From NCBI GenBank assembly GCA_038207335.1, contig JBBQZX010000033.1, forward strand, positions 1-55,369: DNA of 55,369 bases. Reading direction: 5' to 3'. Positions 8,512 to 28,100 of the stretch are shown one piece after another (within the stretch, counting starts at the first letter, position 1; each line of letters starts with the position of its first letter). The notes under the pieces were generated by a model. The model ran no database searches, was not told where the DNA came from, and worked only from the letters and a program-made list of their open reading frames with translations. Position numbers and translations under genes: made by a program. This DNA is from Chthoniobacterales bacterium (lineage in GTDB: Bacteria > Verrucomicrobiota > Verrucomicrobiia > Chthoniobacterales > Chthoniobacteraceae).

Positions 8512-8889
8512 TCAAAAGCGATCGGGGAGCGTCAGATGCAATGCGAGCTTTGACCGCAATTCGTCCAACAGAGCACCGTCCATAAAGGTGTATTCGTCGG
8601 GGATGTGCAGCGTGATGAACTCCTTGCTTTCGAGTGCCGTCGGGAATTTCTGACGCAACTTGCTGAGGTGGGATTTCTCCATGACAAAGATCACATCCGC
8701 CCAGCCGAGGTGACCTTCAGTGACGACAATCCTGGCCCCGGGCTGAGTGCCGGCAGAACGCGCAACGTAGCCGGGGACAGCCTCGAAAAGCCTCTCTGCC
8801 GTGAGGCTGCGGATCTTATTCCTGCTGCAGATGAAGAGGATTTTTGTCGGTGCGGACTGCTCCAGGGACGGTCGTGAAGGCCGGCTCAT
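8512..8889 (-). CDS. Low-molecular-weight protein tyrosine phosphatase-like protein
   Basis: CX5R P-loop [38 protein letters not shown] overlap with the kinase stop at 8886-8889. Confidence 0.82.
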
Positions 8890-10364: not shown

Positions 10365-11121
10365 CGGGATTGATGAGCATGTAGCCGACAGCGCGCACCG
10401 TGCGGATGAAATGCGGGTTCTTCGGATCGTCGCCGAGCTTCTTGCGGATCGCCCAAATGTGGACATCGATCGAGCGGTCGAGCCCGTCGTAATTGCGATC
10501 GGCGAGCGTTTCGATGAGTTGCTCGCGCGACTTCACGCGACCCCGCGCGCGAGCCAGGGACGCGAGCAAATCGAACTCGAGCGCGGTCAGCGTGAGCGGC
10601 TCTTCGCCGAGCAGCGCGACCCGCGAGCCGGGGTTGATCCGCAGCAGTCCGACCACGATCTCGGCTTCAGTGCGATCCTCTCCCGGAGCCGCCGGGCGGG
10701 CCGTCCGACGCGTGACGGCGCGCAGCCGCGCGAGCAATTCGCGGCTCGAAAAGGTCTTCGGAAGATAGTCGTCGGCGCCCATTTCGAGGCCGACGATCCG
10801 GTCGGTATCCTCGCCCCGCGAAGTGAGCATGAGGATCGGCACGTCGGATTTCGCGCGCACGCGTTTCATTACTTCGAAGCCGTCCATGCCGGGCATGTTC
10901 ACGTCGAGAATGATGGCGTGAAACTTCTCCGCGAGCGCTCGGTCGGAGCCGGCATGACCACTGTGCTCGGCGAGCACTTCGTAGCCGAGAGGGTCGAGGT
11001 AGGCTTTGATCAGCGCACAAAGTTCGCGGTCGTCGTCGATCACGAGCACCCGCGTGGAGGCCGCGGAATTCGAGCGGGAACTGGCAGTAGAGGAGGGAGG
11101 CATCACAAGTCTCGGATGCAT
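10354..11121 (-). CDS. OmpR-family response regulator (CpxR-like)
   Basis: [22 protein letters not shown], winged helix DRSIDVHI...IRTVRAVGY. Start may be 11103. Confidence 0.94.
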
Positions 11122-11319: not shown

Positions 11320-11898
11320 ATGAAATCGAAACCGACCATCCTTCTGACGGCGCTCGCGCTGGCAGCCACCACCATTCTTGCCACCGCGCAGGACACTCCG
11401 AAACCCGGCGCAACCGACCCAGGTGCCCGACGCCAGCGCGGCCAGGGCGGGCCCGGCGGCAACATGGAGGACTTCATCAAGCGCATGAACGAGCGCATGA
11501 AGACTTCGCTGAAAGTCACCGACGAAGAGTGGAGCGTGCTCCAGCCGCTCATTGAAAAAGTGCAGACCTCGCAGCGTGAAGCTGGCGCAGGACGCGGCGG
11601 CTTCGGCGGCTTCGGTGGATTCGGCGGCCGTGGCGGCACGGGCGGACAAGGCGGCAACAACAATGGCGGCGCGACTCCGCCCGCGGACACGCGCCCCGGC
11701 GCAGCGGAAGGCACGGCCTTGCGCACGGCGCTCGAGAGCGACAGCACTTCGCCGGAAGAGATCAAAGCGAAGCTCGCCGCTGTCCGCGAGATTCGGAAAA
11801 AAGGCGCTGCTGAGCTCGCCGTCGCGCGTGAGAATCTGAAGAAAGTCGTGACCGTGCGTCAGGAAGCCGTGCTCGTCTCGATGGGCCTGCTCGAATAA
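11320..11898 (+). CDS. Secreted Gly-rich helical protein, possibly Spy/CpxP-like
   Basis: Signal peptide MKSKPTILLTALALAATTILATA. Motifs LKVTDEEW and VVTVRQEA loosely resemble LTXXQ. First gene of the T2SS operon. Confidence 0.6.
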   Translation: MKSKPTILLTALALAATTILATAQDTPKPGATDPGARRQRGQGGPGGNMEDFIKRMNERMKTSLKVTDEEWSVLQPLIEKVQTSQREAGAGRGGFGGFGGFGGRGGTGGQGGNNNGGATPPADTRPGAAEGTALRTALESDSTSPEEIKAKLAAVREIRKKGAAELAVARENLKKVVTVRQEAVLVSMGLLE

Positions 11899-11909: not shown

Positions 11910-13613
11910 GTGACCGGCAGCCCCCTCGCCACAACTTCCGAACCACGCCAGGACCTCCTTGCGTCCATGGTGGAGCGCCAACAGCTCTCCTCCATGGACG
12001 CCGAGGTGCTGGGGGGCAGCGCGGTGCTGGCGGAGACGGAGGAAGAAGTGCTGCAGTGGCTCGCCGAGGAATACGGACTCGGCTACACGCCGCTCGATAA
12101 AATCGAGCCCGACCGCGCTCTGCTCGCGCGCTTTCCCGCGCGCGTGTTGCTGCGCGAAGAGCTTCTGCCGCTGAGTGAAAAAGATGGCGTGATCGAGGTG
12201 GCGGTGAGCCGCCTTTTCGCGACGCCGGGGCTCGATAGCTTGCGGTCGATCACGAATCTCAAACTCGCGCCGATCCTCGCACCCAGCGAGGCGCTCCAGC
12301 GCGAAATCAAGAAGCATCTCGGCGTCGGCGCCGACACGCTCAACCTCCTCGAGCAGGAGGATTTTTTCCAAGTCGTCTCGGATGATCTCGAAGATTCCTC
12401 CGACCTCGACAAGGCCGCGGAAGACGCGTCGATCATCCGCTTCGTCAACCAGGTGCTCGGCGACGCGCTGTCGCTGCGCGCGTCCGACATTCACGTCGAA
12501 CCGTTCGAGCACGAGCTGCGGATTCGCTACCGCATCGACGGACTTTTGCAGGAAGTGCCGGTGCCTGCGCAGATCAAGCGCTTTCAGCCGGCGATCGTTT
12601 CGCGCATCAAAATTCTCAGCAACCTGAACATCGCCGAGAAGCGCGTGCCGCAGGATGGGCGCATCAAAATTCGCGTGAAGGCGAGCGATGTGGACATCCG
12701 CGTTTCGATCATTCCGATGCTGCACGGCGAAGCGGTCGTGATGCGTTTGCTGCGGCAAAACTCCGGGATGATCGGGCTCGACGGCATCGGAATGGCGGCG
12801 CGTGAGCGCGAGCTTTTCGACCGAGTGCTTGGGATGCCGCACGGCATCGCGCTCGTGACGGGACCGACCGGCAGCGGCAAAACGACGACGCTTTATTCCG
12901 CGCTGCACCAGATCAACGACGAAGTGCGGAAGATCATCACCATCGAGGATCCAGTCGAATATCAGCTCAAGGGGATCAACCAAATTCAGGTCAACGAAAA
13001 GGCGGGGCTGACCTTTTCGCGAGGTCTGCGGGCAATCCTGCGACACGACCCGGACGTCGTGTTGATCGGAGAAATTCGCGATCAGGAAACCGCGCAAATC
13101 GCCGTGCAGGCATCGCTCACGGGCCACATGGTTTTCTCCACGCTGCACACGAATGACGCGCCCGGCGCGCTCACGCGGCTCGTGGACATGGGTGTCGAGC
13201 CGTATCTCGTCGCGTCGTCGCTCGAGGCGGTTGTCGCCCAGCGGCTTGTGCGCGTGCTCTGCGAGGATTGCAAAGCAGACGACACATCCGCTCGAACGAC
13301 GGCGTTGCGCGAGCGCGTCGAGACGTTGCGCGGGGCAAAGATTTTCCGCGCCGTCGGTTGCAAGAACTGCCGGATGACGGGCTTCACAGGACGCCGCGCG
13401 GTCTTCGAACTGATGACGATGAGTGCGCCGATTCGCACCATTTTGCTGCGCGGCGGATCGAGCATCGAAATCAAAGACGCCGCGAAACGCGAGGGGATGA
13501 AAACCCTGATTGAAGACGGCTGGCGGCTCGTCTGCGACGGCGTGACGACGCCGACAGAAGTGCTGCGCGTTTCCAAAGATGAAGGCACCGACGGCTTCGC
13601 CGTGAGCGCATAA
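11910..13613 (+). CDS. gspE: Type II secretion ATPase GspE/PulE
   Basis: RASDIHVEP, PQDGRI, Walker A GPTGSGKTTT, TIEDPVE, LRHDPDVVLIGEIRD, STLHTND, two CxxC motifs. Confidence 0.95.
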   Translation: MTGSPLATTSEPRQDLLASMVERQQLSSMDAEVLGGSAVLAETEEEVLQWLAEEYGLGYTPLDKIEPDRALLARFPARVLLREELLPLSEKDGVIEVAVSRLFATPGLDSLRSITNLKLAPILAPSEALQREIKKHLGVGADTLNLLEQEDFFQVVSDDLEDSSDLDKAAEDASIIRFVNQVLGDALSLRASDIHVEPFEHELRIRYRIDGLLQEVPVPAQIKRFQPAIVSRIKILSNLNIAEKRVPQDGRIKIRVKASDVDIRVSIIPMLHGEAVVMRLLRQNSGMIGLDGIGMAARERELFDRVLGMPHGIALVTGPTGSGKTTTLYSALHQINDEVRKIITIEDPVEYQLKGINQIQVNEKAGLTFSRGLRAILRHDPDVVLIGEIRDQETAQIAVQASLTGHMVFSTLHTNDAPGALTRLVDMGVEPYLVASSLEAVVAQRLVRVLCEDCKADDTSARTTALRERVETLRGAKIFRAVGCKNCRMTGFTGRRAVFELMTMSAPIRTILLRGGSSIEIKDAAKREGMKTLIEDGWRLVCDGVTTPTEVLRVSKDEGTDGFAVSA

Positions 13614-13617
13614 AGCC

Positions 13618-14874
13618 ATGCCCGTCTTCGCTTACAAAGCCATGCAGGCCAATGGTTCCGCGACCGAGGGGAGCATCGAGGCCGGTGGGCGGCAGGATGC
13701 GGTCCGGACGCTCGAACAGCGCGGGCTCACGCCGATTCGACTGACGGAAACATCAGCGATTTCGTCGAATGGAGCGCGCGCCGCCAAGTCGCCAGCAACG
13801 GCAACGGCAAGTGGGAAGTTCGCGTGGAAATCGACGCGCGTGACGTTCGATGCACTCGAGGATTTCACGCGCTCGCTCTCGAGTTTGCTCGCGGCGAATG
13901 TGCCGCTCAGCCGCGCGCTGACTATTCTCTTCAAAGAATCCTCGAACCCCGCGGCGTCCGCGAAATGGCGCGAGCTGCACGATTTCGTGATCGACGGCGT
14001 GCCGCTCGCCGAGGCGATGAATCGCTCGCCGGAAGTCTTCCCGCGCGTCTATGTCGCGATGGTTGAGGCGGGCGAGGCCGGCGGCTTTCTCGACGTTGTG
14101 CTCGGACAAATCGCGGACTTCCAGGCGAGGGAGAAAGAGATGCGCGCGAAGGTCGTCTCCGCGATGATGTATCCTGCCGTGCTGCTCTGCCTCGCGACCG
14201 CGGTGCTGATCTTTTTGATGGTCTTTTTCATCCCGCGTTTTCAGACGCTTTTCGCGGGCTTCGACGCCGCGCTGCCGATGCTCACGCAAGTTATCGTCGG
14301 CATCAGCGACGCGATGCGGAACTACGGTTTTTACATGCTCGCGGCCGTGATCGCGGCGGTTTGGTTTGGGCGGAAGTGGTTCAAAAAAGAGAGCAGCCGG
14401 CGGCTGTGGGAATCGTGGATGTTGCGCATGCCGGTCATCGGTCCGCTGGCCGCGAAGATCGCGATGGCGCGCTTTTGCCGGATGCTCGGCACGCTGCTCG
14501 GCGCAGGCGTTTCACTCATCAACGCGCTCTCCGTTTCCCGCCGCTCGCTCGGCTACCAGACGCTCGTCGATCTCGTCACCGACTCGACGGAGCGCGTGAA
14601 AAAAGGCGAAGCGCTCGGCGCGAGTCTCGCCGATTGCCGCGCGCTTTTCGGCGGCTCGACGCTCGAAATGATCGCCGTCGCGGAAGAGAGCGGACGCTTG
14701 GATCAAGAGCTGGTGCGGCTTGCTGGAGCGACGGAGATCACTCTCGATCGCCAGCTCAAAACCGCAGTCGCGCTCGCCGAGCCGCTCATGCTTTTCGCCA
14801 TTGCCGGCCTCATTGGCACAATTTTCATCGGCATGGTCATCCCGATTTTCACCATCCAAGACTACATCAAATGA
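13618..14874 (+). CDS. gspF: Type II secretion inner-membrane platform protein GspF
   Basis: AGEAGGFLD, AMMYPAV, VAEESGRLD, AEPLML duplicated T2SSF motifs. Confidence 0.95.
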   Translation: MPVFAYKAMQANGSATEGSIEAGGRQDAVRTLEQRGLTPIRLTETSAISSNGARAAKSPATATASGKFAWKSTRVTFDALEDFTRSLSSLLAANVPLSRALTILFKESSNPAASAKWRELHDFVIDGVPLAEAMNRSPEVFPRVYVAMVEAGEAGGFLDVVLGQIADFQAREKEMRAKVVSAMMYPAVLLCLATAVLIFLMVFFIPRFQTLFAGFDAALPMLTQVIVGISDAMRNYGFYMLAAVIAAVWFGRKWFKKESSRRLWESWMLRMPVIGPLAAKIAMARFCRMLGTLLGAGVSLINALSVSRRSLGYQTLVDLVTDSTERVKKGEALGASLADCRALFGGSTLEMIAVAEESGRLDQELVRLAGATEITLDRQLKTAVALAEPLMLFAIAGLIGTIFIGMVIPIFTIQDYIK

Positions 14875-15323
14875 ACCCACAAATGCTCCATCTCCGACGC
14901 CCCAATCTGCGTAGTTCCCGCGCTTTCACCCTCGTGGAAATGCTGCTCGTACTCGTCATCCTCGCGGTGCTCGCCGCGATCGTGATTCCGAAGTTCGCGG
15001 GTCGCAGCCAGCAGGCGAAAATCACCGCAGCCGGCTCGCAAATCTCGGGATTCGAGCTCGCGCTGAATTCCTTTGAAGTGGACAACGGTTTTTACCCGCC
15101 GGGCAGCGCGGGGCTGAATGAATTGATCGAGCAGCCGAACAATCTGCCGAGCTGGAAAGGGCCGTATCTCAGCAAAGGCGTCCCGCTCGACCCGTGGGGG
15201 AATGCCTACCTTTACAGCTACCCGGGCAAGGGGAATCCGAAGGGTTTCGACATTCAATCGATGGGCCCGGACGGGCAGGCCGGCACCGATGACGACATCG
15301 TGAATTGGGATGTCAAAAAGTGA
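14871..15323 (+). CDS. gspG: Major pseudopilin GspG
   Basis: Prepilin site RA|FTLVEMLLV, FEVDNGFYP, WKGPYL, DPWGNAY, SMGPDG. ATGA overlap with gspF. Confidence 0.95.
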   Translation: MNPQMLHLRRPNLRSSRAFTLVEMLLVLVILAVLAAIVIPKFAGRSQQAKITAAGSQISGFELALNSFEVDNGFYPPGSAGLNELIEQPNNLPSWKGPYLSKGVPLDPWGNAYLYSYPGKGNPKGFDIQSMGPDGQAGTDDDIVNWDVKK

Positions 15324-15810
15324 TTCAACGCAGCTCGCGCCGGGCTTCACGCTCGTCGAACTCGTCGTCGTGATGGCGCTGCTGGCGATCGTCGCAGCAC
15401 TCTCCGCGCCTGCGATGTCGCGGTCGATTCGCGCGCGTAATCTCAATGGCGAAGCCGCGCGCTTCGTCGCCGCGACGGAATACGCACGCGACGAGGCGGT
15501 GTCGCAGGGCCTGCCGATGACCGTCTGGATCGATCCCGCGACCCAGCATTTCGGCATCGCGCCGCGCGCTGGTTACGAAGGCGTCGAGTCGCGCGACCGC
15601 GAGTTTGCGGTGAACACGGATATTCATTTCGAACTGGAGAGCGCAACCGCGGGCGGCGAGCTCGTGCAGGCGGTGGAATTCTCGCCGGACGGAACTCCGA
15701 CGACGACGAGTCTCGAATCACTGCGGGTCGTCGATCGGTTTGAAAACGAGGTCACGGTCGCGCGGACGAAGGACGGGTGGAGTTACGAAGTCGCGAAAGA
15801 TGAGCGATGA
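15310..15810 (+). CDS. gspH: Minor pseudopilin GspH/FimT-like
   Basis: G|FTLVELVVVM prepilin motif, YARDEAV, FSPDG; position in operon. Confidence 0.8.
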   Translation: MSKSDSTQLAPGFTLVELVVVMALLAIVAALSAPAMSRSIRARNLNGEAARFVAATEYARDEAVSQGLPMTVWIDPATQHFGIAPRAGYEGVESRDREFAVNTDIHFELESATAGGELVQAVEFSPDGTPTTTSLESLRVVDRFENEVTVARTKDGWSYEVAKDER

Positions 15811-16196
15811 ATCGGCGCGCTGCTTTCACATTTGTCGAGACGCTCGCGGCGATGGCGTTTCTAGGAATTCTGCTCCCCGTGCTCGTCTCGGCGCTGCACG
15901 TTTCGAGCGGCGTCGGTTCCGTGGCGGAGCGTTCGACGGTGGCGATGCAGCTCGGGGAAAATCGGCTGAACGAAATGACGCTCGGCGACGCGTGGAGTTC
16001 GGCGGAAAGCAAGGGGGACTTCGGCACGGACTGGCCCGGCTACCGCTGGGAGTTGCGGCAAACCGACTGGGAAACCGGCTCGATGACGGAACTCGAGATG
16101 GACGTTTTTTTCACCGTCCAAGGCCACGAAGACGAGGTGCGCATGAGCACGCTGGTGAGCCAATCACTCACGCAAGCGCAGACGCAAAGCCAATGA
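15807..16196 (+). CDS. gspI: Minor pseudopilin GspI-like
   Basis: A|FTFVETLAAM prepilin motif, 129 aa, GYRWE; position in operon. Confidence 0.78.
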   Translation: MNRRAAFTFVETLAAMAFLGILLPVLVSALHVSSGVGSVAERSTVAMQLGENRLNEMTLGDAWSSAESKGDFGTDWPGYRWELRQTDWETGSMTELEMDVFFTVQGHEDEVRMSTLVSQSLTQAQTQSQ

Positions 16197-16897
16197 AACG
16201 TCGCGCGTTCACCCTCATCGAACTCGTGCTCGCGATGGCAGCGTGCGCGATTCTGCTCTCGGCGATTTACAGCTTTTTCGGGAACGCGGTGCATCTGCGC
16301 AACAACCTGATGAGCCGTACGCGCGAGGCACGTTTGCGCGCGCGGGCGGCGAGCGTGATTCGCAACGATCTGCGCAACGCCATCGTCTCCGGCGGCAGGA
16401 TCGCCGCGACGCTGGAGGGTTCGCAGCAGAGCCCCGGCGGAAGCTTTCCCGGCTATTTGAAATTCGATACGACCACGGCAACCGACGCCGACGACGTGCC
16501 GAATCCGGACGTGCAGCAGGTCGAATATTATATCGTAACCGACCCGGATACGAAGGATCAGAAGGCCGGTCTTTTTGTCCGCGCCGCCACCCGTAATTTG
16601 CTCGCGACAACGACGGAGGCACCCACAGAAGAGCCTTTGCTGGCGGGCATCGAATCGATGGACGTCTCATTTTACGACGGCAGCGACTGGCAGAATTCGT
16701 GGACGTTTTCGACAGAAGAAACGACGCTGCCGGAAGCGGTGCGCGTGCGGCTCCAACCAGCGCGAACAGCGACTGATGATTTCGTGCCGCCGCCGATCGA
16801 AGTGCTCGTGCCGTGGCCGACGGAAATGGCCACGCCGCCGGTTTCAACGACCGGTACCACAGCCTCTGGATCATCTGGAACGGGAGGGACGCCGTGA
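16193..16897 (+). CDS. gspJ: Minor pseudopilin GspJ-like
   Basis: MKRRA|FTLIELVL, IRNDLRNA, FYDGSDWQNSW, LPEAVRV. ATGA overlap. Confidence 0.82.
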   Translation: MKRRAFTLIELVLAMAACAILLSAIYSFFGNAVHLRNNLMSRTREARLRARAASVIRNDLRNAIVSGGRIAATLEGSQQSPGGSFPGYLKFDTTTATDADDVPNPDVQQVEYYIVTDPDTKDQKAGLFVRAATRNLLATTTEAPTEEPLLAGIESMDVSFYDGSDWQNSWTFSTEETTLPEAVRVRLQPARTATDDFVPPPIEVLVPWPTEMATPPVSTTGTTASGSSGTGGTP

Positions 16898-18258
16898 GCC
16901 GACATTTTCGACAACCCGAACGCGGTTCGGTGCTCATCGTGGTGCTCTGGGCTTGCGTCGGACTGGTGAGTGTTTCGCTGCTGCTTGGACATTCGATGAT
17001 GATGGCGGCGCGCGGCGCGGACAACGATCTCGCGGGTCGTCAGGCGGATCAGGCGATTGACGGCGCGGTGCGTTACGCAGAGTCGCTGCTCGTCAATCCC
17101 ACGACACCCGGCGTGATCCCGGAGGCGACGAGTTATCAAGGCGAAGCGGTGCCAGTCGGCGAGGCGCAGTTTTGGCTATTCGGGACACCTGCGGACACGA
17201 CCGCCGGCACGACGGGTGAATACGGGCTCGTCGATGAAGCCTCGAAGTTGAACCTCAACTCGGCGACCCCCGCCATGCTCTCGAATCTGACGTCGGTGTC
17301 CGGCATGACGGCGGATTTCGCAGCGGCGATCAAGGATTGGCGCGACACGGATGACACCGAGACGTCGGGCGGCGCGGAGTCTTCGACCTACGCGCAGAAG
17401 TCGCCGGCGTACGCCGCGAAGAACGCGGACTTCGAATCGATCGAAGAACTGGCGCTGGTTAGCGGTGCGTCGCGCGAACTGCTTTACGGCGAAGATGCGA
17501 ACCTCAACGGCGCGCTTGATCCCAATGAAGATGACGGTGAGAAAAACTTACCGTCCGACAACGCGGATGGAAAACTCGACGCAGGTTTGCTGGCGTACGT
17601 CACGGTCTTCAGCAAGGAACCGAAGAAGCTGACCGATGGCACCGCTCGGGTTGACCTCACGCCTCCGGGGCCGAACCAGACGCTCATTCAACTCCTCACC
17701 GACAAACTCGATGCGAGCCGTTTGGCGGCGATTCTGGCCGCGATCGGACCGGCGGGTGGTCTGAGCCCGCTGCAGCTTTACGCGAACAGTGGAATGACTG
17801 CGGAGGAGTTTGGAAAGATCGTCGATTCGGTGATGGCGGATACCGTTCCACCGACTACGGGCGATTATCTGATCGGGAAAATCAACGTGAACACGGCCAG
17901 CGCGACGGTGCTCGCTTGCCTGCCGGGGATGGATGCGAGCAAGGCTCAGCAGCTCGTGAGCGCTCGGCAGAGCCGAGCCACGGTGGACACGAACATTGCG
18001 TGGGTCGCCGACGCGCTGGGCAAGACCAGCCCGTTGCTCGCGCAGATCGGCCCGCTCATCACCGGCCAAACTTTTCAGGTTAGCGCGGACGTGGCAGCGG
18101 TCGGGCGACATGGACGCGGATATCGGCGGACGAAGGTCGTCATCGACACGAGCACGGGCTCGCCGCGCGTTATTTACCGGCGGAATCTCGCGCCACTCGG
18201 TTGGGCGCTCGGCAGTCAGGTCCGGCAGGATTTGGCGCAACAAAAAGCGACGAAATGA
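16894..18258 (+). CDS. gspK: Minor pseudopilin GspK
   Basis: RG|SVLIVVLW, DEASKLNLN, AIKDWRD, FESIEEL, KINVNTA helix-hairpin-helix. GTGA overlap. Confidence 0.88.
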   Translation: MSRHFRQPERGSVLIVVLWACVGLVSVSLLLGHSMMMAARGADNDLAGRQADQAIDGAVRYAESLLVNPTTPGVIPEATSYQGEAVPVGEAQFWLFGTPADTTAGTTGEYGLVDEASKLNLNSATPAMLSNLTSVSGMTADFAAAIKDWRDTDDTETSGGAESSTYAQKSPAYAAKNADFESIEELALVSGASRELLYGEDANLNGALDPNEDDGEKNLPSDNADGKLDAGLLAYVTVFSKEPKKLTDGTARVDLTPPGPNQTLIQLLTDKLDASRLAAILAAIGPAGGLSPLQLYANSGMTAEEFGKIVDSVMADTVPPTTGDYLIGKINVNTASATVLACLPGMDASKAQQLVSARQSRATVDTNIAWVADALGKTSPLLAQIGPLITGQTFQVSADVAAVGRHGRGYRRTKVVIDTSTGSPRVIYRRNLAPLGWALGSQVRQDLAQQKATK

Positions 18259-19670
18259 AGTTCGACCTCGCTGAATTACAGAAGCGTTTGCAAGTCCGCG
18301 CCGTGCTCGCGGTGACGTTGGAATCCGGGCGGATGGTCGTCGAGTATGTGCGCCAGGACGACAGCGTGAGCCAAAGCGCACGCTCGATCGTTCTGCCCCT
18401 CGGCGCGGACGCGGTCCTCGCCGATCCGGAACGTGCGGGCCAGCGATTAGCCGCTGAGCTAGCAACTGCGGGCCTTCGCGAGCGACGGTGCGTGGTCTGC
18501 CTCCCGGCGGGGTGGGCCATGGCCACCTCCACGGACGTGCCCGGAGTGACGGCAGAAGACCTGCGCGGATTTTTGGAACTGCGTGCCGAACGCGAATTTC
18601 CGATGCCCGTTTCTGACCTGCGGCTGGCGCATTGCGAGTTCGTTTTGCCGGATGGAAAAGAGCGCGCGACGCTCGCCGCGGTGCCGGCGAAAAGAGTCGA
18701 AGCGATCGAGCGAATGCTGGCCACGGCGGAGTGCCGCGCGGTCTCGCTTTCACTCGGTCTGGACACTTGCCTGCCGATCGGCGGCGCGCCTGCGGCACTG
18801 CATTTTCTCGCGAATGGCAATCACGTCGATGTGGTGATTGCCGCCGGCGGCGGCATCGCGGCGGTGCGCACTTTGCCGACTTCGGTGAATGCGGAAACCA
18901 CCGCTTTCGAAGCCACGCTTTTTTCCCGTGAAGTCCGCATCACGCTCGGCCGTTTGCCCGAGGCGCTGCGACAGCAGGTGCGCGAGGCGCGGTTCGGCGG
19001 CGCGCCTAATTCGGCGCAAAACCTCTGCCAGGAAATGCGGCCGCATTTGACGCGGATGGGCATCGAGAGCCGGCTGGAAAACAAGGCTGGCACTGATCCC
19101 GCGGCCCACCCGGCTTCCGCGCACGCTGCCGCGACGCGCTACCTGCGGCAGCTCCCGGTGACGTTCGAATTTCTGCCGCCGCAGGTGAATCGCTGGCAGG
19201 CGATGGCGCGGCAATTAGAGGATCGCCGGCGGCGATGGGCCGCCATCGCTGTGCTGGCGATTCTGATGCTGCCGATCCTCACGTATTTCGTGCGCGCGCA
19301 CATGGAGAGCAGCCTGAATTCGGAGTGGAGCGGGATGCAGGGGAAGGTGAATCAGCTCGATAAATTGCAGCAGCGCATCCGGCAATTCCGCGCGTGGTTC
19401 GACCCGGCACCGCAGAGCGTGCAGGCGCTGGAAACGCTCGATTCGTCGTTCCCGGAGCAAGGCGATGTTTGGGCGAAAAGCGTGCAGATCAACGACGGCG
19501 CGAAGGTCGTCTGCACCGGATTTGCGCGCAGCCACACGGCGCTGCTTGGCTTCCTCGACAGCCTCCGCAAGCACCCGGAAATCTCCGCCGTCCAGCTCCA
19601 GCAGGAGCGCGGCGAGAAGCCGGTGCAGTTTTCCATCATCTACAAATGGGGGGCGAACGATGTCCGCTAA
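18255..19670 (+). CDS. GspL-like / PilM-PilN-like assembly platform protein
   Basis: Large N-terminal cytoplasmic region, one TM (WAAIAVLAILMLPILTYFV), coiled coil, PilN-like C-terminus (VWAKSV..CTGFA); synteny. Confidence 0.7.
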   Translation: MKFDLAELQKRLQVRAVLAVTLESGRMVVEYVRQDDSVSQSARSIVLPLGADAVLADPERAGQRLAAELATAGLRERRCVVCLPAGWAMATSTDVPGVTAEDLRGFLELRAEREFPMPVSDLRLAHCEFVLPDGKERATLAAVPAKRVEAIERMLATAECRAVSLSLGLDTCLPIGGAPAALHFLANGNHVDVVIAAGGGIAAVRTLPTSVNAETTAFEATLFSREVRITLGRLPEALRQQVREARFGGAPNSAQNLCQEMRPHLTRMGIESRLENKAGTDPAAHPASAHAAATRYLRQLPVTFEFLPPQVNRWQAMARQLEDRRRRWAAIAVLAILMLPILTYFVRAHMESSLNSEWSGMQGKVNQLDKLQQRIRQFRAWFDPAPQSVQALETLDSSFPEQGDVWAKSVQINDGAKVVCTGFARSHTALLGFLDSLRKHPEISAVQLQQERGEKPVQFSIIYKWGANDVR

Positions 19671-20205
19671 ACGGCGCGAAACCCTGCTGAAAATCGGCGT
19701 CGGCTTGATCGTCGCGCTTTTTCTCCTCGACCGCATGGTGCTATCGCCGGCGATCGCAGGCTGGAAGGCGCAGAGCGTCCGGCTCGCCGCGCTTGAGCAG
19801 AAAGTGAAGAACGGGCGGCAGCTTTTGCTACGCGAGAAATCGCTGAGCGCGCGGTGGGACGAGATGCAGCGGGCGAACCTCGCGGAGGATCGATCGTCCG
19901 CGGAGAACGATGTCTATAAAGCCTTGGCGCGCTGGAATTCCGAGAGCCACGTCAGCTTCACGAGCCTCACGCCGACTTGGCGCGATCATCTCGATGAGGG
20001 TTACTCGACGTTCGAGTGCCGCGCGACGGCGGCGGGCGATCAGGCGTCGCTGGCACATCTCGTTTACGAAGTCGAAACTGATCCGTTGCCGGCGCGAATC
20101 GAGGAGTGCGAATTGACCGCGCACGATGCGAAAGGCGCGCAACTCGGACTCGCGTTGAAGTTCAGTTTCGTGCGGATTCTGGAAACAGGGAAGAACGCGC
20201 GATGA
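19660..20205 (+). CDS. GspM/PilO-like protein
   Basis: MSAKRRE followed by an N-terminal TM and coiled coil; follows the GspL-like gene. Confidence 0.65.
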   Translation: MSAKRRETLLKIGVGLIVALFLLDRMVLSPAIAGWKAQSVRLAALEQKVKNGRQLLLREKSLSARWDEMQRANLAEDRSSAENDVYKALARWNSESHVSFTSLTPTWRDHLDEGYSTFECRATAAGDQASLAHLVYEVETDPLPARIEECELTAHDAKGAQLGLALKFSFVRILETGKNAR

Positions 20206-20789
20206 AGGCTCCTGCTCGTTTTGCGGTCGTTGCGTTGCTTTTGCTCGTCGCCGGAAGCGGAGTCGCGCGTGCGGCGGAAAAAGTCGCGGGCTTCGAGGCG
20301 TTTCGGCTGATGCGGACGCGGAACATGTTCGATCCCAATCGACGTCCCGCGCGTTCCGAGGCTCCGCAGCGATCGGTTGCGCCGGTGCGCGAGAATCGGT
20401 CTAGCACGCTTTCACTCACCGGGACGATGGTAACCGAAGGAAAGTCGCTCGCGTTTTTCTCTGGCAGCCGTGCGGATTACAGCAAGGTGCTCGCGGTCGG
20501 CGACACGATTGCGGGGTGCAAAATCACGGCGATAAAATCGACGGAAATTGAGATGGAGCGCGGCGGAAAGCCGGGGACATTGGCGGTCGGGCAGCAGCTT
20601 CAAATCGACGGCGCGCCATCCGATCTTCCGCCGCCGGAAGCTGCCGCACCGGCGACTGCCAACGCCACTCCCGGCGACCCTTCCCCGCCGACGCCTGCGG
20701 CACCCGGTGCTACTCCCGCCGCTTCCAATGACCCCAGTGATGTCCTCCGCCGCATGATGGAGCGCCGCGAAAAAGAGATGAACAAATGA
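20202..20789 (+). CDS. GspC/PilP-like HR-domain protein
   Basis: RNMFDP, LSLTGTMV...LAFF...VGDTIAGCKITAI resembles an HR domain; Pro-rich tail; directly upstream of the secretin genes. Confidence 0.6.
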   Translation: MKAPARFAVVALLLLVAGSGVARAAEKVAGFEAFRLMRTRNMFDPNRRPARSEAPQRSVAPVRENRSSTLSLTGTMVTEGKSLAFFSGSRADYSKVLAVGDTIAGCKITAIKSTEIEMERGGKPGTLAVGQQLQIDGAPSDLPPPEAAAPATANATPGDPSPPTPAAPGATPAASNDPSDVLRRMMERREKEMNK

Positions 20790-22567
20790 ACGCCACCCTC
20801 CCAAATTCCGTCCTGAAATTCCTGCTCGCTTCGACTCTGATTTTTCCCGGCCTCGCCGAGGCTCAGACGCGCCGCACCAATCGTCCCACTTCAGATTCGT
20901 CGCGGTCGAACAACGCTCCGCCGCCGAGTTCGCCGGCCGTAGCCTTGCCTTCTCCAACCGCTCCCGCCGCGCCGTTCCGCGGACCGGCGCTTTCGGAGCC
21001 AGTGGCGCCATCGGTCGCGCTGCCGGAGGTCGACCCGGTGCTTTTTCAAAAGGAACTGACGCCTTTGAAAACCGAAACGACCACGAAAGAAGTGACCCCG
21101 GAGAAGACAGAAACGGTCACGACGACCACGACGACTCCGCCGACGAAACCCTCGCCGCCGGCTGCGCCGCTTCCGAAAGGGATGATCATGCTGAATTTCC
21201 AAGGCGCGTCGCTGACCGAAGTGTTGAACTATTTGAGCGAGGCGGCGGGCTTCGTGATCGTGCAGGAAACGCCGGTTACCGGCACCGTGAACGTCGTCAG
21301 CCGGCAGCCGATCACCTCGGAGGACGCGGTCGATTTGGTCAACGCGGTGCTCATCGAAAAGGGCTACGTCGCGATTCGCAACGGCCGCATTTTGAAAATC
21401 GTGAAGCGCGAAGGGGCGCAAAAACGCGACCTGCCGGTCCACACGGGCAGCGACCCGGAGCAGATCCCGCGGAAGGACGAAATGGTCACGCAAATCCTGC
21501 CGCTGCGTTTCGGGGAAGCGGCGAAGCTCGTCGAAAACCTGCGCCCGCTGCTCGCTGACAACGCGGCGATCAGCGCGAACGAGAGCAGCAACTCCATCCT
21601 GCTCACCGACACGCAATCGAATATTCGCCGCATCGCAGAAATCATCCGCGCCATCGACACCTCCGTCGCCAGCATCTCCACGCTCCACGTTTACGAGCTG
21701 AAATATGCGAATGCCAAGGCACTCGCCGAGGTGATCACGGAACTCTTCGCAACTTCGACCGCGGGCGGGACCGGCGGCAGCACGCGGAGCGGGCGGAGCG
21801 GGCGGGGCGGTGGCGGTGGCGGAGGATTCTTTCCGGGCTTCGGCGGCCCGGGAGGACCGGGCGGCGGAGATCCGACGGCGGGGCAAAGTGAAGCGCGGCA
21901 GGCCAATTCCCGCGTCATCGCCGTCGCTGACGACCAGAGCAATTCGCTCATCGTCAGCGCGCCGGAGGATGTCATCCCGAACATCACGGAAGTGGTGAAC
22001 AAGATCGACACGAACATCACCGACGTCACCGACACGCGCATTTTCCGGCTGCTCCACGCCGACGCCATCGAGACCGCGACGATCCTCAACACCCTCTACG
22101 GCGACGCCGCTACGCAGACCAGTCAATCGACCGGCCGCAACAACAACCAGCGCGGCCAGAACGGGCGGGGCGGCGGATTCCCCGGCCAACAGCAGCAACA
22201 AGCGGCCACGGCCAACAAGAGCGAGCGCGCTTTGCAGCAGTCGAAAGTCGTCGCGGTCGGTGACGGGCGCACCAATTCCCTCATCGTCACCGCGGGGCAG
22301 GAAACGATGACGCAAATCGCCGAGACCGTCGGCCGGCTCGACTCCAGCGACGCCAAGAAACAGCACGTCTATGTGCATTCGCTCCAGCACGCGGATGCTG
22401 AAAGCGTCGCCGATGTACTCCGCGGCATGCTGGGCCAGCAGACCAATTCCAATTCCAGCCAGAACGGACAGAGCCGACTCAACCAACGGAGCAACAACGG
22501 CGCTGCGATGGATACCTCAGACTCCTCCAGCAATCTCTCCGGCTCCGGCGGAGGGCGAGCGCGCTAG
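20786..22567 (+). CDS. Secretin N-terminal-domain protein (N0 + 3.5 Secretin_N repeats, no barrel)
   Basis: Signal peptide; N0 MLNFQGASL; repeats ILPLRFGEA..SNSILLTD, VYELKYANA..SNSLIVSA, IFRLLHADA..TNSLIVTA, then a half repeat VHSLQHADA..VLRGML; stop TAG. Confidence 0.88.
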   Translation: MNATLPNSVLKFLLASTLIFPGLAEAQTRRTNRPTSDSSRSNNAPPPSSPAVALPSPTAPAAPFRGPALSEPVAPSVALPEVDPVLFQKELTPLKTETTTKEVTPEKTETVTTTTTTPPTKPSPPAAPLPKGMIMLNFQGASLTEVLNYLSEAAGFVIVQETPVTGTVNVVSRQPITSEDAVDLVNAVLIEKGYVAIRNGRILKIVKREGAQKRDLPVHTGSDPEQIPRKDEMVTQILPLRFGEAAKLVENLRPLLADNAAISANESSNSILLTDTQSNIRRIAEIIRAIDTSVASISTLHVYELKYANAKALAEVITELFATSTAGGTGGSTRSGRSGRGGGGGGGFFPGFGGPGGPGGGDPTAGQSEARQANSRVIAVADDQSNSLIVSAPEDVIPNITEVVNKIDTNITDVTDTRIFRLLHADAIETATILNTLYGDAATQTSQSTGRNNNQRGQNGRGGGFPGQQQQQAATANKSERALQQSKVVAVGDGRTNSLIVTAGQETMTQIAETVGRLDSSDAKKQHVYVHSLQHADAESVADVLRGMLGQQTNSNSSQNGQSRLNQRSNNGAAMDTSDSSSNLSGSGGGRAR

Positions 22568-22580
22568 CCGACTTTTTTTC

Positions 22581-23984
22581 ATGAATACGCCTCTTCCGTC
22601 CCTCGCGCTGTTCCTCCTCGCCAGCGTCATTTTCACCGCGCCGCTCCAGGCCCAGCAAACCGCCCGCCCCGGCGGCAACGCCCGCGGCACCACCGGCACG
22701 ACTTCGCGCAGCGGCGGGGTGTCCAGCAGTTCGAGCAACCGCACCACCAGCACCGGCTCGCGGCAATACCGCAGCAACACCGAAATTGGCGACGCCGTCA
22801 TCACCATCGACCCCGAGACCCGCTCGCTCATCATCGTTACCGACGAAGACACGCATCGCGAGATGACCGGCGTCATCAAATCCCTCGACCAGCCCAAGCC
22901 GCAGGTGCTCATCAAGGTCGTCTTCCTCGAAGTGACCTACAATAAGGGTCTCGATGTCGGCCTCGAAGGCAGCTACACCTTCAACCTAAAGAACCCCGTC
23001 TCGGCGACCACGGGCACCAGCACGACCACGACGGCTACCTCCGGCACGATCTCGGGCGGCACGACGAACACCAACACCAGCCTCGTCTCCCCTCTCGGCA
23101 GCGCCGCCCGCGCCGCTCAGACGGCCATCGCTTCGAGTGCCTTCGGCGCGCCTTTGACGGGCAGCTTCGTCCGCCTCGCCAGCGATGACTGGTCCGCCAC
23201 GCTCCACGCCCTTGCCAGCAAGGGCAGAGTCGAAATCCTCTCGCGGCCCTCCGTCATGGCGCGGAACAACCAAGAAGCCGTCATCGTCGTCGGCTCCGAG
23301 GTCCCGTTTATCACCTCCAGCAGCCTCACTTCCACCGGCCAGACGAACAACACGATCCAATACGACAACGTCGGCATCATCCTCCGCGTCACCCCCTTCA
23401 TCACCTCCGAGGGGACCGTCGAAATGATCGTCGCCCCCGAGATTTCCGCACTCACCGATCAGACCGTACCGATCGGCAACAACACCTTCGCCCCCGTCAT
23501 CTCCAAACGCTCCGCCGAAACCGTCGTCGTCACCCCGCACGCCCAGACCGTCGTCATCGGCGGCCTCATGCAAACGCAGAAGACCTCCAACGTTCAAAAA
23601 ATCCCGCTCCTCGGCGACATCCCGTTTCTCGGTGCCGCATTCCGCCGCACCATCGCCAGCGACACCAAAACCGAGCTGCTGATATTCCTGACCCCCTACA
23701 TCCTGAACAATGCGGAAGGCCTCGCCGCCGCCACCTCAGACGAGATGGGCCGCACCGAGCTCGTCGATCGCTCCTTCGCCCCTCACGAGCTCGAAAAATA
23801 CCTCGACAGCCTCCCTGAGCCCAAGCTCGACCTCGAACACCCGCGCGTGCCCGGCACCTTCTCGAAGGCGGAGAAAGTCACCAAAACCACGACCACCACG
23901 ACCATCCGCAAAGCAACCCTCCCCACCGCCCCTTCCCCCCTTAAGACCAAGCCCGCGACCCTCGTGCGCCCGAGCAATCACTGA
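22581..23984 (+). CDS. gspD: Secretin C-terminal (barrel) protein, GspD family
   Basis: Own signal peptide MNTPLPSLALFLLASVIFTAPLQA; IDPETRSLII, PQVLIKVVFLEV, ILSRPSV..NNQEA, VGIILRVTP, KIPLLGDIPFLG, TELLIFLTP. Confidence 0.9.
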   Translation: MNTPLPSLALFLLASVIFTAPLQAQQTARPGGNARGTTGTTSRSGGVSSSSSNRTTSTGSRQYRSNTEIGDAVITIDPETRSLIIVTDEDTHREMTGVIKSLDQPKPQVLIKVVFLEVTYNKGLDVGLEGSYTFNLKNPVSATTGTSTTTTATSGTISGGTTNTNTSLVSPLGSAARAAQTAIASSAFGAPLTGSFVRLASDDWSATLHALASKGRVEILSRPSVMARNNQEAVIVVGSEVPFITSSSLTSTGQTNNTIQYDNVGIILRVTPFITSEGTVEMIVAPEISALTDQTVPIGNNTFAPVISKRSAETVVVTPHAQTVVIGGLMQTQKTSNVQKIPLLGDIPFLGAAFRRTIASDTKTELLIFLTPYILNNAEGLAAATSDEMGRTELVDRSFAPHELEKYLDSLPEPKLDLEHPRVPGTFSKAEKVTKTTTTTTIRKATLPTAPSPLKTKPATLVRPSNH

Positions 23985-24079
23985 CCGGCACGATCCCGGT
24001 TTGGTCATGTTGGGAAAGTGGGGAGTCGGGGCACGGAGAGCCTCGCGTGGAACTTGTCCTCGTTTTGAGGCGCTTGAAT

Positions 24080-24289
24080 CCGGGGGTAGGGCGGATCGAA
24101 ATCCGCCGTGCGCCGAGCGCAACACCTTCATCGTGCAATCCCCTTTGCTCGAATCCGCCCAGGCCGAGATCCTGGCTCAGTGGATTATCGAATACCACCG
24201 CTTGGATCGTTCGCCCCCCACACAATCTCCTCCCCAGTGGCGGCGAGAACCTCAGCGAGCGCGGCGGCCTTTTCATCGATCAGCGACAT
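24080..24289 (-). pseudogene. Frameshifted remnant resembling a phage head-tail joining protein
   Basis: Joining three frames at two G-runs gives MSLIDEKAAALAEVLAATGEEIVWG/RTIQAVVFDNPLSQDLGLGGFEQR/DCTMKVLRSAHGGFRSALP. Family resemblance is from memory only. Confidence 0.4.
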
Positions 24290-24375
24290 GCCGAGGTCGA
24301 CCCGTCAACAAAGGCGCCCGTCCTAAATGAGCTGCAAACCATTCACCGGTTTCGCTTAATTGTAGGCAGAACTAA

Positions 24376-25119
24376 ATGACTCCTTCCGTTCCAAACGAGG
24401 GCGGCTCACCGCTTTTCCTGACCACGCGCTGGTCGGTCGTCGTGTCGGCGCAAGGCAAAGGCTCGGGCGATGCGAATGCTGCGCTGGAGGCACTCTGCAG
24501 CGGGTATTGGTATCCGCTCTACGCCTATGTGCGAAGGCTCGGCCGCAGCGCGCACGATGCACAGGATCTGACGCAGGATTTCTTCGCGCGGTTGCTCGAA
24601 AAGAACTATCTGCGCGCAGCGGATCGCGAAAAAGGACGCTTCCGCACGTTTCTCCTCGTGGCGCTGAAACGCTTTCTGGCCAACGAGTGGGACCGCGCCA
24701 AAGCGCAGAAGCGCGGCGGCGGAAGCGTGGCCGTGCCCTTCGATACAGACTTCGCGGAAAGCCGTTATGCGGCGGAACCGACGGCAACGCAGGCGGCGGA
24801 CCGCGAATACGAACATCGCTGGGCGATGACGCTTCTGGAGCAGGCGATGGCGCACTTGCGCGCGGAATATGAGCGCGCTGGGCGGGCGGCGGAGTTTGAG
24901 CAATTGAAGGAGCATCTCACTGCCGAGCGTGGGGCGATCCCGTATGCGGCGATTGCGGCGACGCTGGGGGTCGGCGAGAGCGGAGCACGGGGCGCGGTGC
25001 ATCGGCTGCGCAAGCGCTTTCGCGATCTATTTCGCGCGCAAATCGCCGACACGGTTTCAGATCCGACCGCAGTGGATGACGAGGTGCGGCATGTAGTCGC
25101 GGCGTTGAGTGGGGAGTGA
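24376..25119 (+). CDS. ECF-type sigma-70 factor, Ser/Thr-kinase-associated
   Basis: FLTTRWSVV, YWYPLYAYVRR, DAQDLTQDFF, GRFRTFL, region 4 YAAIAATLG..AVHRLRKR. Confidence 0.92.
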   Translation: MTPSVPNEGGSPLFLTTRWSVVVSAQGKGSGDANAALEALCSGYWYPLYAYVRRLGRSAHDAQDLTQDFFARLLEKNYLRAADREKGRFRTFLLVALKRFLANEWDRAKAQKRGGGSVAVPFDTDFAESRYAAEPTATQAADREYEHRWAMTLLEQAMAHLRAEYERAGRAAEFEQLKEHLTAERGAIPYAAIAATLGVGESGARGAVHRLRKRFRDLFRAQIADTVSDPTAVDDEVRHVVAALSGE

Positions 25120-25153
25120 AAAACAAGTCGCCCCGAATGCTTAACTCATTGGT

Positions 25154-28100
25154 ATGAACCAACCCGGCTCTCCAGCAAAAGTCTGCGGACGCTGTGGCTC
25201 GACGCTGCCGACGAACGCACCGGAGGGTCTGTGTCCGCGGTGCCTCGGCGCGCTGAACCTGGCCGATGAGACAGTCTTCACAGAAACCGACGCGCCCCGG
25301 ATTCCCCCTCCCTCGCCGGAGCAAATCGCCACGCACTTTCCGCAACTCGAAATCATCGAGTGCCTGGGTCGCGGAGGGATGGGCGTCGTTTACAAAGCGC
25401 GGCAGAAATCGCTGGGCCGGCTGGTCGCGTTGAAGCTGCTCGCGCCGGAGCGGGAAAAGGATCCGCAGTTCGCCGAACGGTTTTCCCGCGAGGCGCAGGC
25501 GCTCGCGCAACTCGATCATCCGCATATCGTCACCATTTACGATTTCGGGCAGACGAACGGCTTTTTCTATCTCCTCATGGAGTTTGTCGATGGAGTGAAT
25601 CTGCGCCAGCTCCTGCGTTCGCGGAAACTTACACCGGAAGAGGCGCTGGCGATCGTGCCGCCGCTTTGCGAGGCGCTGCAATTCGCGCACGAGCGCGGCA
25701 TCGTGCATCGCGACATCAAGCCCGAGAACCTGCTCCTGACCAAAGACGGTCGCGTTAAGATCGCGGATTTTGGCATCGCGAAGATGCTCGGAGACGAGAC
25801 GCAAGTCGCCGAAGAAAAGGCCGCGGGCACGCCCGGATACATGGCTCCCGAGCAGATGGAAATGCCGCCGCGTGTCGATAGCCGCGCGGACATCTATTCA
25901 CTCGGCGTGGTCTTTTACGAGATGCTTACCGGGGAATTGCCGAAACAGAAATTCGCAGCGCCCTCTCGGAGAATCGCGGTGGATGTGCGGATCGATGAGG
26001 TGGTGTTGCGCGCCTTGGAAAAGTCACCCGAACTGCGCTGGCAGACGGCTGCCGAAATGCGAACGCAAGTGGAAGCCATCGCCGCGGCAGGCACCACCGG
26101 GACAGCAAAAGAGTGGCATCCGAAGCGGCAGTGGCTGTTCTGGCTTCTCGCAGTGCCCGGCACGGTCGCGCTGCTCATTTTCAACAGCTTCCTCCTCTAC
26201 TTCTATGTGCCGTCCACGAACTGGTCGCACACCTATGGCTACGCATCGAACGTTGGGCAGCTTTTGATGACAGTGAACGCGCTGCTTCTGTGTGTCGCAC
26301 TCGACGTTGGTGTGCTGCGATCCCTATGGGTGTGGGCGCACGCCGCACCGGCGCAACCCGCGCGCCTCTGGCACCACACCCGCCTCTGGTGGGCGTTCGC
26401 GCTGATTTGCGCTCTCTTCCCCTGGCTGCTATTTCCACACGCGCCTCGCATCGAGTCGCCCGCACAACGCACGGAGGTTGGACTGCAAGATTTGTCGAGC
26501 GACGCACAGATCCGGATCGCCAAAGCGACTGAGGCACTACGAGGAATCGCTGACATTCAGAAACGTGGGCGCGTCAGCGCGGCGGATTGGACCATCGCTC
26601 AGGAGGCAGCAAAAACGATCCAGGAGCTTCAGCCCGCGAACGACACTGCCAAACGCGAATGGGAGATTCATCGTGCCGATGGTAAAGTGGAACTGCTTCA
26701 CAAAAACATCGAGGGAAAGGTAATGGATCGAGACATCGTAATGGCGCCCACCGCGACGCAATCGACGAACGAGCGAAACGCAGAACCGCCCGCGACCGCT
26801 GCCAACAAACTCTCCGCCACCGCGTTGAAATTCCGGGTGGATGAAGCGGAGATTCGTCTAGCCGCGGCGGACAAGACGGCAAAGCGTCAAGCGGAGTTGC
26901 TGAACCAGGGCCAGATCAGCAACGAAGAATACGATAAGACCGCGTTGGATCTCGAGCTTGCAAAGATCGCTTTGCGGGCGGCGCAAGCGGAGTGGCGGGA
27001 GGCGCAACAAGCACCGGAAACGCCAGCGACCAAGTCGAGTCTGCCCCCGACCCTCTCGGTCATCACGGATGGCAACGTGATGCATCCCGATTTGCCAGTC
27101 ACGAGCGGCGAGACAGCCCTGCGCAAACGGGATGACGCTCGGAAAAGCTTAAAGGAATCAGAGCAAACATTACGACTGCTCCAGCAGCGATTGATCGAAG
27201 GCACCATCAGCCCGGAAGATTACCGCAACGCGGAGCGCAGCGTCCAAGCGCTGCGCGATACCGTCCAGGCACTGGAGGAGAATCCGAACACTGTGACGCT
27301 TCCGTCTGGCACGGCAGGCCCGTATCCCCCGCTAGTCCCGGGCGAGCCGCGAGTGGAAACATCGCCCGACGAAAATCAGCCTGCCAAGACAGCGCCAGCA
27401 TCTGTCGCTGCGAATACGGGAGGCATAGGCGTTGCACTGAAGGAGGAAAGCGGAAGCTTCACCATCGGAAGCATCCTTCCCGACTCTCCCGCCGCAAAGG
27501 ACGGCGCGCTCAAGCCCGGTCACGAAATTCGCAGCATCGGAGACAGCGGAGATCACCTCGTGAGCATTGCCGGTTGGAAGCTGCCGGATGTTGTCGCACG
27601 GCTGCGTGGGAAGGAAGGAACGCAAGTCAGTCTCTTTGTCGTTAAGGACGGCGTCGGAACTATCGTGACACTCATCCGCCGACATTTGCCGGAGTTGGAG
27701 GCAGGACGTGAGCATCCGAAAACCGAAGCCGAGCTCTCCAATGCGCAATTCAATCAGACGCCGCGCCAAGGCGGGCTGGGCTTGCGGCCCGTGTGGCGCT
27801 TCAGCCGCGTCGTGAATGCTTTCGCTGACGACGACGAGACGGCGACCTCACCGGCGACTTGGATTCCAAGCAATCCGCCGCTGCTTCTCGTCCGGCGCAA
27901 GAACGACATTGCGGCATTCAGCACCGCAGAAGATCGAACCGAGGCAGGATGGTCCTTTGGTCTCGAAGGAGAGCGTTCCAGCCCCCCGGCTTGGGATGCA
28001 AAGCGGCGACAGATTTACTTCGGAAACGGAACTCAGATGATCGCACTGGACGAACGCGGTCATGTCGTCTGGAACTGCGAGACGAATGGGAAGATTCTGG

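Follow-up and report, generated by a model that had tools for sequence, protein, structure and literature searches.

A predicted two-gene form of the type II secretion secretin GspD, divided inside its barrel-proximal Secretin_N repeat, in Verrucomicrobiota

Secretins that serve type II secretion systems (T2SSs) in bacteria have been described as consisting of one chain, with an N3 domain that ring assembly requires. In the window analysed here, a stretch of 55,369 nucleotides (nt) comprising the forward strand of contig JBBQZX010000033.1 from the Chthoniobacterales assembly GCA_038207335.1, the secretin locus consists of two forward open reading frames (ORFs), D1 (gspD part 1) and D2 (gspD part 2), which lie in different frames and 13 nt apart (Table 1). 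Judged by sequence comparison, this pair is a real, conserved two-gene GspD that probably works like the canonical T2SS secretin, yet without forming the one polypeptide that defines the family. With a probability of about 0.8, a T2SS secretin gene has been cut inside the loop of the N3-equivalent repeat, each chain likely being exported on its own and the two likely rebuilding the divided domain in the periplasm. Complementation of the two halves is the likeliest reading of the evidence set out below.

Domain searches with Pfam recognise N0 (residues 136-205) and Secretin_N in four stretches of D1, whereas D2 matches only positions 31-69 of the Secretin_N profile (residues 70-108), followed by Secretin at residues 210-375. 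Scans with half-repeat profiles count four beta1-alpha1 and three beta2-beta3-alpha2 units in D1 against none and one in D2, so the two halves are exactly complementary. These counts were obtained with general half-repeat profiles, hidden Markov models built from the split family having proved too specific. Both kinds of scan agree with the initial annotation, made from the letters alone, which had assigned N0, three repeats and an orphan half to D1 and the missing half plus the barrel to D2; the ORF map likewise agrees with its placement of the D2 start 13 nt downstream in another frame and with its observation that the D2 frame is open from about position 22371. Both predicted signal peptides (signal-peptidase-I type) were called by eye and with a hydrophobicity heuristic. 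Neither a Shine-Dalgarno motif nor a terminator was found in the 13-nt spacer, and a search of positions 20500-24400 found no sigma-70 promoter. A Logan contig reproduces the junction end to end with zero differences, although it probably derives from the source sample and is therefore not independent.

The same division is retained across relatives. Among 97 loci examined (17 regions from relatives and 80 from a genome collection), both halves were present in 94, of which 80 were left after removal of duplicates; the remaining three comprised two contig ends and one GspE-D2 fusion. The fusion (L056:2756-4976) is in frame, occurs at a short shared sequence near 3786 with the intervening operon missing, and represents either a microhomology deletion or a misassembly. 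No fused orthologue was detected among the 80 non-duplicate genome loci, among 80 metagenome loci retrieved with divergent members as queries (duplicates retained; 65 split, 12 carrying gene 2 alone and 3 cut), or among 60 further loci that partly overlap the earlier sets and include three cut by contig ends. Loci missed by the motif filters (29, then 21) were classified by BLAST. Because these searches were seeded with split forms, they are biased against distant fused forms; a dedicated search for fused forms among proteins of 819-2335 amino acids (aa) found none above 46% identity among the 120 listed of 7,999 candidates scored.

Across the 80 genome loci, D1 and D2 are offset by 0, 1 or 2 frames in 28, 34 and 18 cases, and D1 ends in TAA (34), TGA (29) or TAG (17). 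The gap between the two genes has a median of 31 nt in orthologues and ranges from -38 to 335 nt. Of 80 orthologues, 78 begin D2 with a hydrophobic signal-like segment; the remaining pair lack an in-frame ATG there and are apparently frameshifted. The proposal of a natural split with a second signal peptide is therefore strongly supported, orthologous pairs having kept both the breakpoint and the segment, as the check suggested with it had asked. Considering that the window belongs to a metagenome-derived assembly, and that private frameshifts or stops occur in a few relatives (L041, L046, L048 and L052), a sequencing error or decaying pseudogene might be suspected. However, the same cut recurs at more than a hundred separate loci (129 unique half pairs), including single-contig genomes (G029 and G291), and the operon is intact; a pseudogene or assembly frameshift was rejected, the break not being private to one genome and fused orthologues numbering zero among the loci surveyed, and conservation already refutes this hardly credible reading. 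Production of one chain through read-through or programmed frameshifting is very improbable as well. It would be compatible with the open upstream frame of D2 and with the 28 orthologues that stay in the same frame across the stop, but not readily with the occurrence of every frame offset and each of the three stop codons, the wide range of gaps, or the internal hydrophobic signal peptide, conserved in 78 of 80, that a fused chain would have to hold.

With regard to distribution, the C-terminus of D1 was matched at E 4e-35 or better in 84 of 400 other genomes in a class-wide sample, and strong D2 orthologues were present in 17 of 36 genomes of the source genome's own family; the system is therefore patchy. 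A phylum-level sample queried with 82 residues returned the split in 6 of 400 genomes, a lower bound given the insensitivity of so short a query. Carriers bear record titles of Chthoniobacterales, Limisphaerales/Pedosphaera, Verrucomicrobiales and Kiritimatiellae, and a single divergent protein of D2 type bears the label Candidatus (Ca.) Sumerlaeota. Three loci titled Akkermansia muciniphila (L106, L112 and L122) also carry the split, and the first two group with other Verrucomicrobiota on the tree; these labels look doubtful and provide no evidence for the split in Akkermansia.

A further division was identified in some lineages. Secretins encoded by three genes occur in seven genomes (L109, L110, L115, L128, L130, L234 and L254) and in one metagenome contig (L223). 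In these forms D1 is itself cut after beta1-alpha1 of its second repeat, in the loop equivalent to that of the N3 cut, and the middle gene encodes a signal-like peptide of its own followed by a half, a whole and another half repeat. The six junctions measured at the second cut have gaps of 36-53 nt, with all frame offsets present. A stop in the same loop of L041 lacks an accompanying signal peptide and was not counted. In a barrel-only tree covering seven of the eight, the three-gene forms occupy three separate positions (a 100/100 clade, L223 and L254), a single clade being rejected (approximately unbiased (AU) test, p 5e-6). The second cut thus apparently arose in about three separate events, two of which rest on single sequences. 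A middle piece with a half at each end makes sense as a link in a chain of complementations, and repeated cuts at one structural position constitute the best indirect evidence that the Secretin_N fold reassembles from halves.

Structure prediction and residue conservation address the junction itself. When D2 was modelled alone with AlphaFold2 (mean predicted local distance difference test score 65), beta2-beta3-alpha2 formed at residues 73-102 (strands 73-77 and 82-86, helix 89-102), followed by a GspD-like barrel; the best structural matches of this model are T2SS GspDs. The model of the D1 C-terminus contains an intact repeat, then a lone helix with beta1 unpaired and a short low-confidence tail helix, and in Foldseek it gave weak secretin matches (best E 1.7e-3). 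The orphan half, which is conserved across 60 orthologues, retains its buried-face residues V528, L533, V541, L545 and M548 at 95% or more, and D537 is invariant. Its conservation score of 0.65 compares with 0.59 for the same half of the preceding intact repeat; a half without a partner in its own chain that is nevertheless as conserved as that of an intact repeat counts in favour of complementation. R81 of D2 is also invariant and adjoins the position of the strongest inter-half coupling, so that a cross-chain salt bridge with D537 of D1 is possible.

Covariation between the halves was evaluated with a coupling model trained on 1,587 intact single-chain repeats and scored on 129 split pairs. 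At the 12 strongest inter-half couplings, cognate split halves scored 5.25 against 2.85 and 2.14 for two non-cognate controls, and the cognate combination exceeded the non-cognate one in 103 and 95 of the 129 pairs. Several observations nevertheless weigh against a rebuilt domain. The cognate score of 5.25 lies below the 11.16 of the intact repeat in the same gene and is no better than the 5.45 of shuffled training pairs; with all couplings included, cognate pairs (68.9) equal one non-cognate control (68.8); and within-family covariation at the 12 contacts reaches percentile 0.60, equal to the positive control, with negatives at 0.50 and 0.47. The covariation signal between the halves is weak, the related sequences are not independent of one another, and the signal peptides were assigned heuristically. 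In addition, the mitochondrial GspD is described as forming pores without any N domain (PMC8134430, in the text available), so D2 might oligomerise alone.

These points bear directly on the possibility that D2 assembles by itself, its half domain and the RQYxxNT motif making up a reduced ring, while D1 forms a separate docking ring beneath, as proposed for RhcC1/RhcC2, and no fold is rebuilt. The invariant Y63 motif could provide a surrogate element, the truncated mitochondrial protein offers a precedent for pores formed alone, and weak covariation would be expected to sit comfortably with such an arrangement. On the other hand, AlphaFold2 predicts disorder and no surrogate strand for residues 20-69 of D2, the buried face of the orphan half is preserved, and the middle pieces of three-gene forms start and end with complementary halves. 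Independent assembly of D2 is accordingly considered unlikely.

The nearest whole relatives, among the matches listed, are Planctomycete-type single-chain GspDs with 41-46% identity to D2 (Phycisphaerae/Tepidisphaerales labels). In 120 of these proteins, the last repeat carries a long G/S/T/N-rich loop, with a median of 117 aa between its units. In a 31-row tree whose alignment includes the half domain, split forms occupy one side of a 100/99 branch that separates them from single-chain relatives, and a larger FastTree run agrees; rows P0148, P0186 and P0191 had been left out of the former for want of a motif match. The simplest history suggested by these comparisons would be fission in the long loop of the last repeat. 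Because the trees are unrooted, the direction was taken from the single-chain state of every GspD structure that, to our knowledge, has been solved. Three proteins (P0213, P0392 and P0397, one labelled Ca. Brocadiaceae) that combine a signal peptide, a half repeat and a barrel are placed among the Planctomycete-type single-chain GspDs, and one origin with the main split group is weakly rejected (AU p 0.038); they possibly represent an independent split of N3.

The number of repeats varies among single-chain and split forms alike. The 120 single-chain relatives contain 3 (43 proteins), 4 (10), 5 (42), 6 (2), 7 (1), 8 (20) or 10 (2) repeats. Among split loci, duplicates included, three whole repeats are commonest (107 loci), while 15 loci have two and thus show the canonical count of N0, N1, N2 and a cut N3. 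The extra repeat is therefore incidental to the split, and a conduit one ring longer than usual, as suggested earlier, is nothing particular to it. Derivation of the two-repeat forms by loss of the middle gene from three-gene forms was considered and rejected, as one whole repeat would remain rather than two. Giant Secretin_N-repeat proteins were also encountered (P0179, P0184, P0196 and similar ones), with frames of 2,900-4,300 aa in G453-G457, G667, G688 and G708; some end in a secretin barrel, at up to 5,532 aa, and some of the genomes concerned also carry the split system.

Taken together, a working model can be proposed. Sec would export D1 and D2 individually, and signal peptidase I would cleave both. 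Following the strand order of the Secretin_N fold, beta1 of D1 would then pair with beta3 of D2 and alpha1 pack beside alpha2, restoring N3, and the resulting D1:D2 protomer would oligomerise into a GspD-type ring in which the N0-N2 conduit contacting GspC comes from D1 and the gated barrel from D2. In solved structures the loop of N3 is disordered. Fission may have originated through the arrival of a stop and a new signal peptide within a long loop of low complexity where continuity was unneeded. A cut inside the domain core points to a stable complex, which leaves the detachable conduit proposed initially unsupported. As a speculative side effect, the barrel might be unable to oligomerise before meeting D1. 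N3 is reported to be required for pore assembly (PMC8134430, citing its ref. 39), and PulD is described as self-assembling once N3 precedes the barrel and as mis-inserting without its pilotin (PMC4604470), so that keeping back one half of N3 could serve as a check on assembly. Neutral fission of a tolerant loop accounts for the data just as well, and no benefit is claimed. No pilotin lipoprotein gene was recognised in the operon, the remainder of the genome not having been searched for one; D2 has predicted helices at residues 378-408, where an S-domain of the pilotin-bound kind might lie.

Two elaborations of this model deserve mention. Complementation might occur mainly in trans, one protomer with its neighbour, or involve unequal copy numbers (12 D1 with 15 D2, for example), thereby relieving the known symmetry mismatch between the barrel and the inner-membrane platform. 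Separate genes would permit unequal numbers, and the text available of PMC10550240 treats N3 as part of the C-module and frames the 15:12 conflict between that module and GspC as an open question; however, a cut between N2 and N3 would suit such a purpose better, and since the actual cut lies inside N3, each barrel subunit would need a D1 half. This idea, a variant of domain complementation rather than an alternative to it, is thought distinctly unlikely. More tentatively, and at slightly less than even odds, the loop between beta1-alpha1 and beta2-beta3-alpha2 may be a reusable split site, and the channel a daisy chain of two or three separately exported, domain-completing subunits in Verrucomicrobiota and their neighbours. 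The cut would have arisen a single time at N3, on about three occasions at the second repeat and possibly again at N3 in the Planctomycete-type proteins, and it may gate pore assembly on the presence of the conduit without a pilotin.

The genomic context supports assignment to the T2SS. D1 and D2 close a complete gspE-F-G-H-I-J-K-L-M-C operon, in which L, M and C were assigned from weak matches and gene position. The pair comprises an N-terminal N0, ring-building repeats (three whole and one divided) and a T2SS-like C-domain within a gsp operon, and the top 10 sequence and top 12 fold matches of the D2 C-domain are all T2SS secretins. What is missing is one polypeptide above the TIGR02517 cut-off of 351 bits, D1 scoring 216 and D2 248 bits, and the split GspD is therefore treated as a variant rather than a plain member of the family. 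The secreted helical protein that heads the operon has no match in Pfam or NCBIfam, sits immediately upstream of gspE in all 12 of the long relative loci, and is a candidate accessory factor, chaperone or assembly factor.

Other genes of the neighbourhood and genome were recorded as well. A two-component pair (response regulator and HAMP histidine kinase) at 8886-11121 on the reverse strand diverges from the operon, adjoins it in 7 of the 12 long relative loci and may regulate it. Downstream, at 24376-28840 on the forward strand, an extracytoplasmic function (ECF) sigma factor precedes a Ser/Thr kinase of 1,228 aa that has PDZ and PQQ-type propeller domains; in none of the relative loci examined was this pair found next to the operon. 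The same genome contains a second T2SS-like cluster (G000:C6:131500-134574, L003) with gspE and a single-frame GspD (821-aa frame), along with other secretins.

Table 1. Coordinates of the split secretin genes, their parts and associated genes (window positions unless a locus is named)
Feature	Position	Strand	Details
D1	20786..22567	+	ATG 20786, TAG 22567; 593 aa; TIGR02517 positions 1-325; signal peptide, Pro/Thr linker, N0, three whole Secretin_N repeats, orphan beta1-alpha1, S/G/N tail
Predicted D1 signal peptide	20786..20863	+	Residues 1-26; AEA end, then Q; judged by eye
N0 domain, D1	21191..21400	+	Residues 136-205; PF21305, E 4.5e-11
Three complete Secretin_N repeats, D1	21488..22342	+	Residues 235-291, 300-408, 417-519; G/S/Q-rich internal loops; second-repeat loop is the cut site in three-gene relatives
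Orphan beta1-alpha1 half of barrel-proximal (N3-equivalent) repeat	22367..22432	+	D1 residues 528-549
L-x-x-R motif, D1 tail	22472..22492	+	L565 97%, R568 100%; predicted short helix
D1-D2 spacer	22568..22580	+	13 nt, T7 run
D2	22581..23984	+	ATG 22581, TGA 23984; 467 aa; TIGR02517 positions 262-597; signal peptide, S/T/G linker, half repeat, secretin barrel, C-terminal helices, T/P tail
Predicted D2 signal peptide	22581..22652	+	Residues 1-24; AQA-like end, then Q; orthologues: A24 82%, Q26 87%
RQYxxNT motif ahead of D2 half domain	22761..22781	+	Conserved; Y63 invariant
beta2-beta3-alpha2 half of barrel-proximal repeat	22794..22889	+	D2 residues 72-103
Secretin beta-barrel (C-domain), D2	22899..23705	+	PF00263, E 1.7e-48
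T2SS operon genes 5' of D1	11910..20789	+	gspE 11910-13613, F 13618-14874, G 14871-15323, H 15310-15810, I 15807-16196, J 16193-16897, K 16894-18258, L-like 18255-19670, M-like 19660-20205, C-like 20202-20789
Secreted helical protein heading operon	11320..11898	+	192 aa; Spy/CpxP-like by Atlas features, look-alikes 0.95-0.96
Three-gene loci in relatives	L109:3916-7026; L128:4103-7020; L223:1086-4087		

A widespread form cut through N3, and twice in some lineages, would show that a ring domain can assemble from separate chains, and would provide a natural setting for making, counting and withholding the barrel and the conduit independently of each other. Two questions would thereby become testable, namely in what order a secretin assembles, and the 15:12 mismatch to the inner-membrane platform, as set out in the available part of PMC10550240. 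The three-gene form, with its second cut in the equivalent loop, is new here. Since neither half passes the TIGR02517 cut-off, split systems are at risk of being annotated as broken.

No description of this T2SS split was found in the literature searched, which included few subscription papers and lay outside supplements; there, the term 'split secretin' referred to rhizobial-type type III secretion systems (T3SSs) only. In a survey of type IV filament systems (PMC6668835), the text available discusses fission only for TadB/C, and Verrucomicrobia are unnamed in the main text. The initial view of an undescribed system had missed two precedents, RhcC1/RhcC2 and the mitochondrial GspDN half-domains, and could not take in the relatives with three genes. 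Compared with canonical single-chain GspDs (E. coli GspD, 5wq7; Klebsiella PulD, 6hcg; Pseudomonas XcpQ, 5wln; TIGR02517), which give the best sequence and fold matches, the split form shares the order of N0, repeats and barrel as well as the operon, and the D2 linker aligns with the N3 loop of 5wq7. It differs in having two chains, each with a signal peptide, a cut inside N3, usually one extra repeat, and no pilotin lipoprotein gene seen in its operon. Planctomycete-type GspDs share the long loop region in the last repeat but consist of one chain with 3 to 10 repeats. The rhizobial T3SS resembles the present system in dividing its secretin into an N-terminal gene and a barrel gene (PMC3574062, PMC3459982). 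As described in the accessible portions of these reports, however, the RhcC1 and RhcC2 genes are not adjacent (PMC3574062) and differ in origin, RhcC2 deriving from a Tad locus and carrying a BON domain (PMC3459982), which amounts to partial replacement in a T3SS rather than fission inside one domain; D1 and D2 lie in a T2SS operon, show no BON match, and D2 is closest to GspD. For the cut site, the nearest precedent is the mitochondrial T2SS, itself T2SS-derived, in which the Secretin_N fold has been halved before, GspDN2 and GspDN3 corresponding to the C- and N-terminal halves of one domain (PMC8134430). According to the text available from that source, this eukaryotic system (GspD/GspDL, GspDN1-3) has no N0 and no GspC, its halves stand alone and its barrel is truncated, whereas the split form is bacterial, possesses N0 and a GspC-like gene, and carries each half attached to a larger chain.

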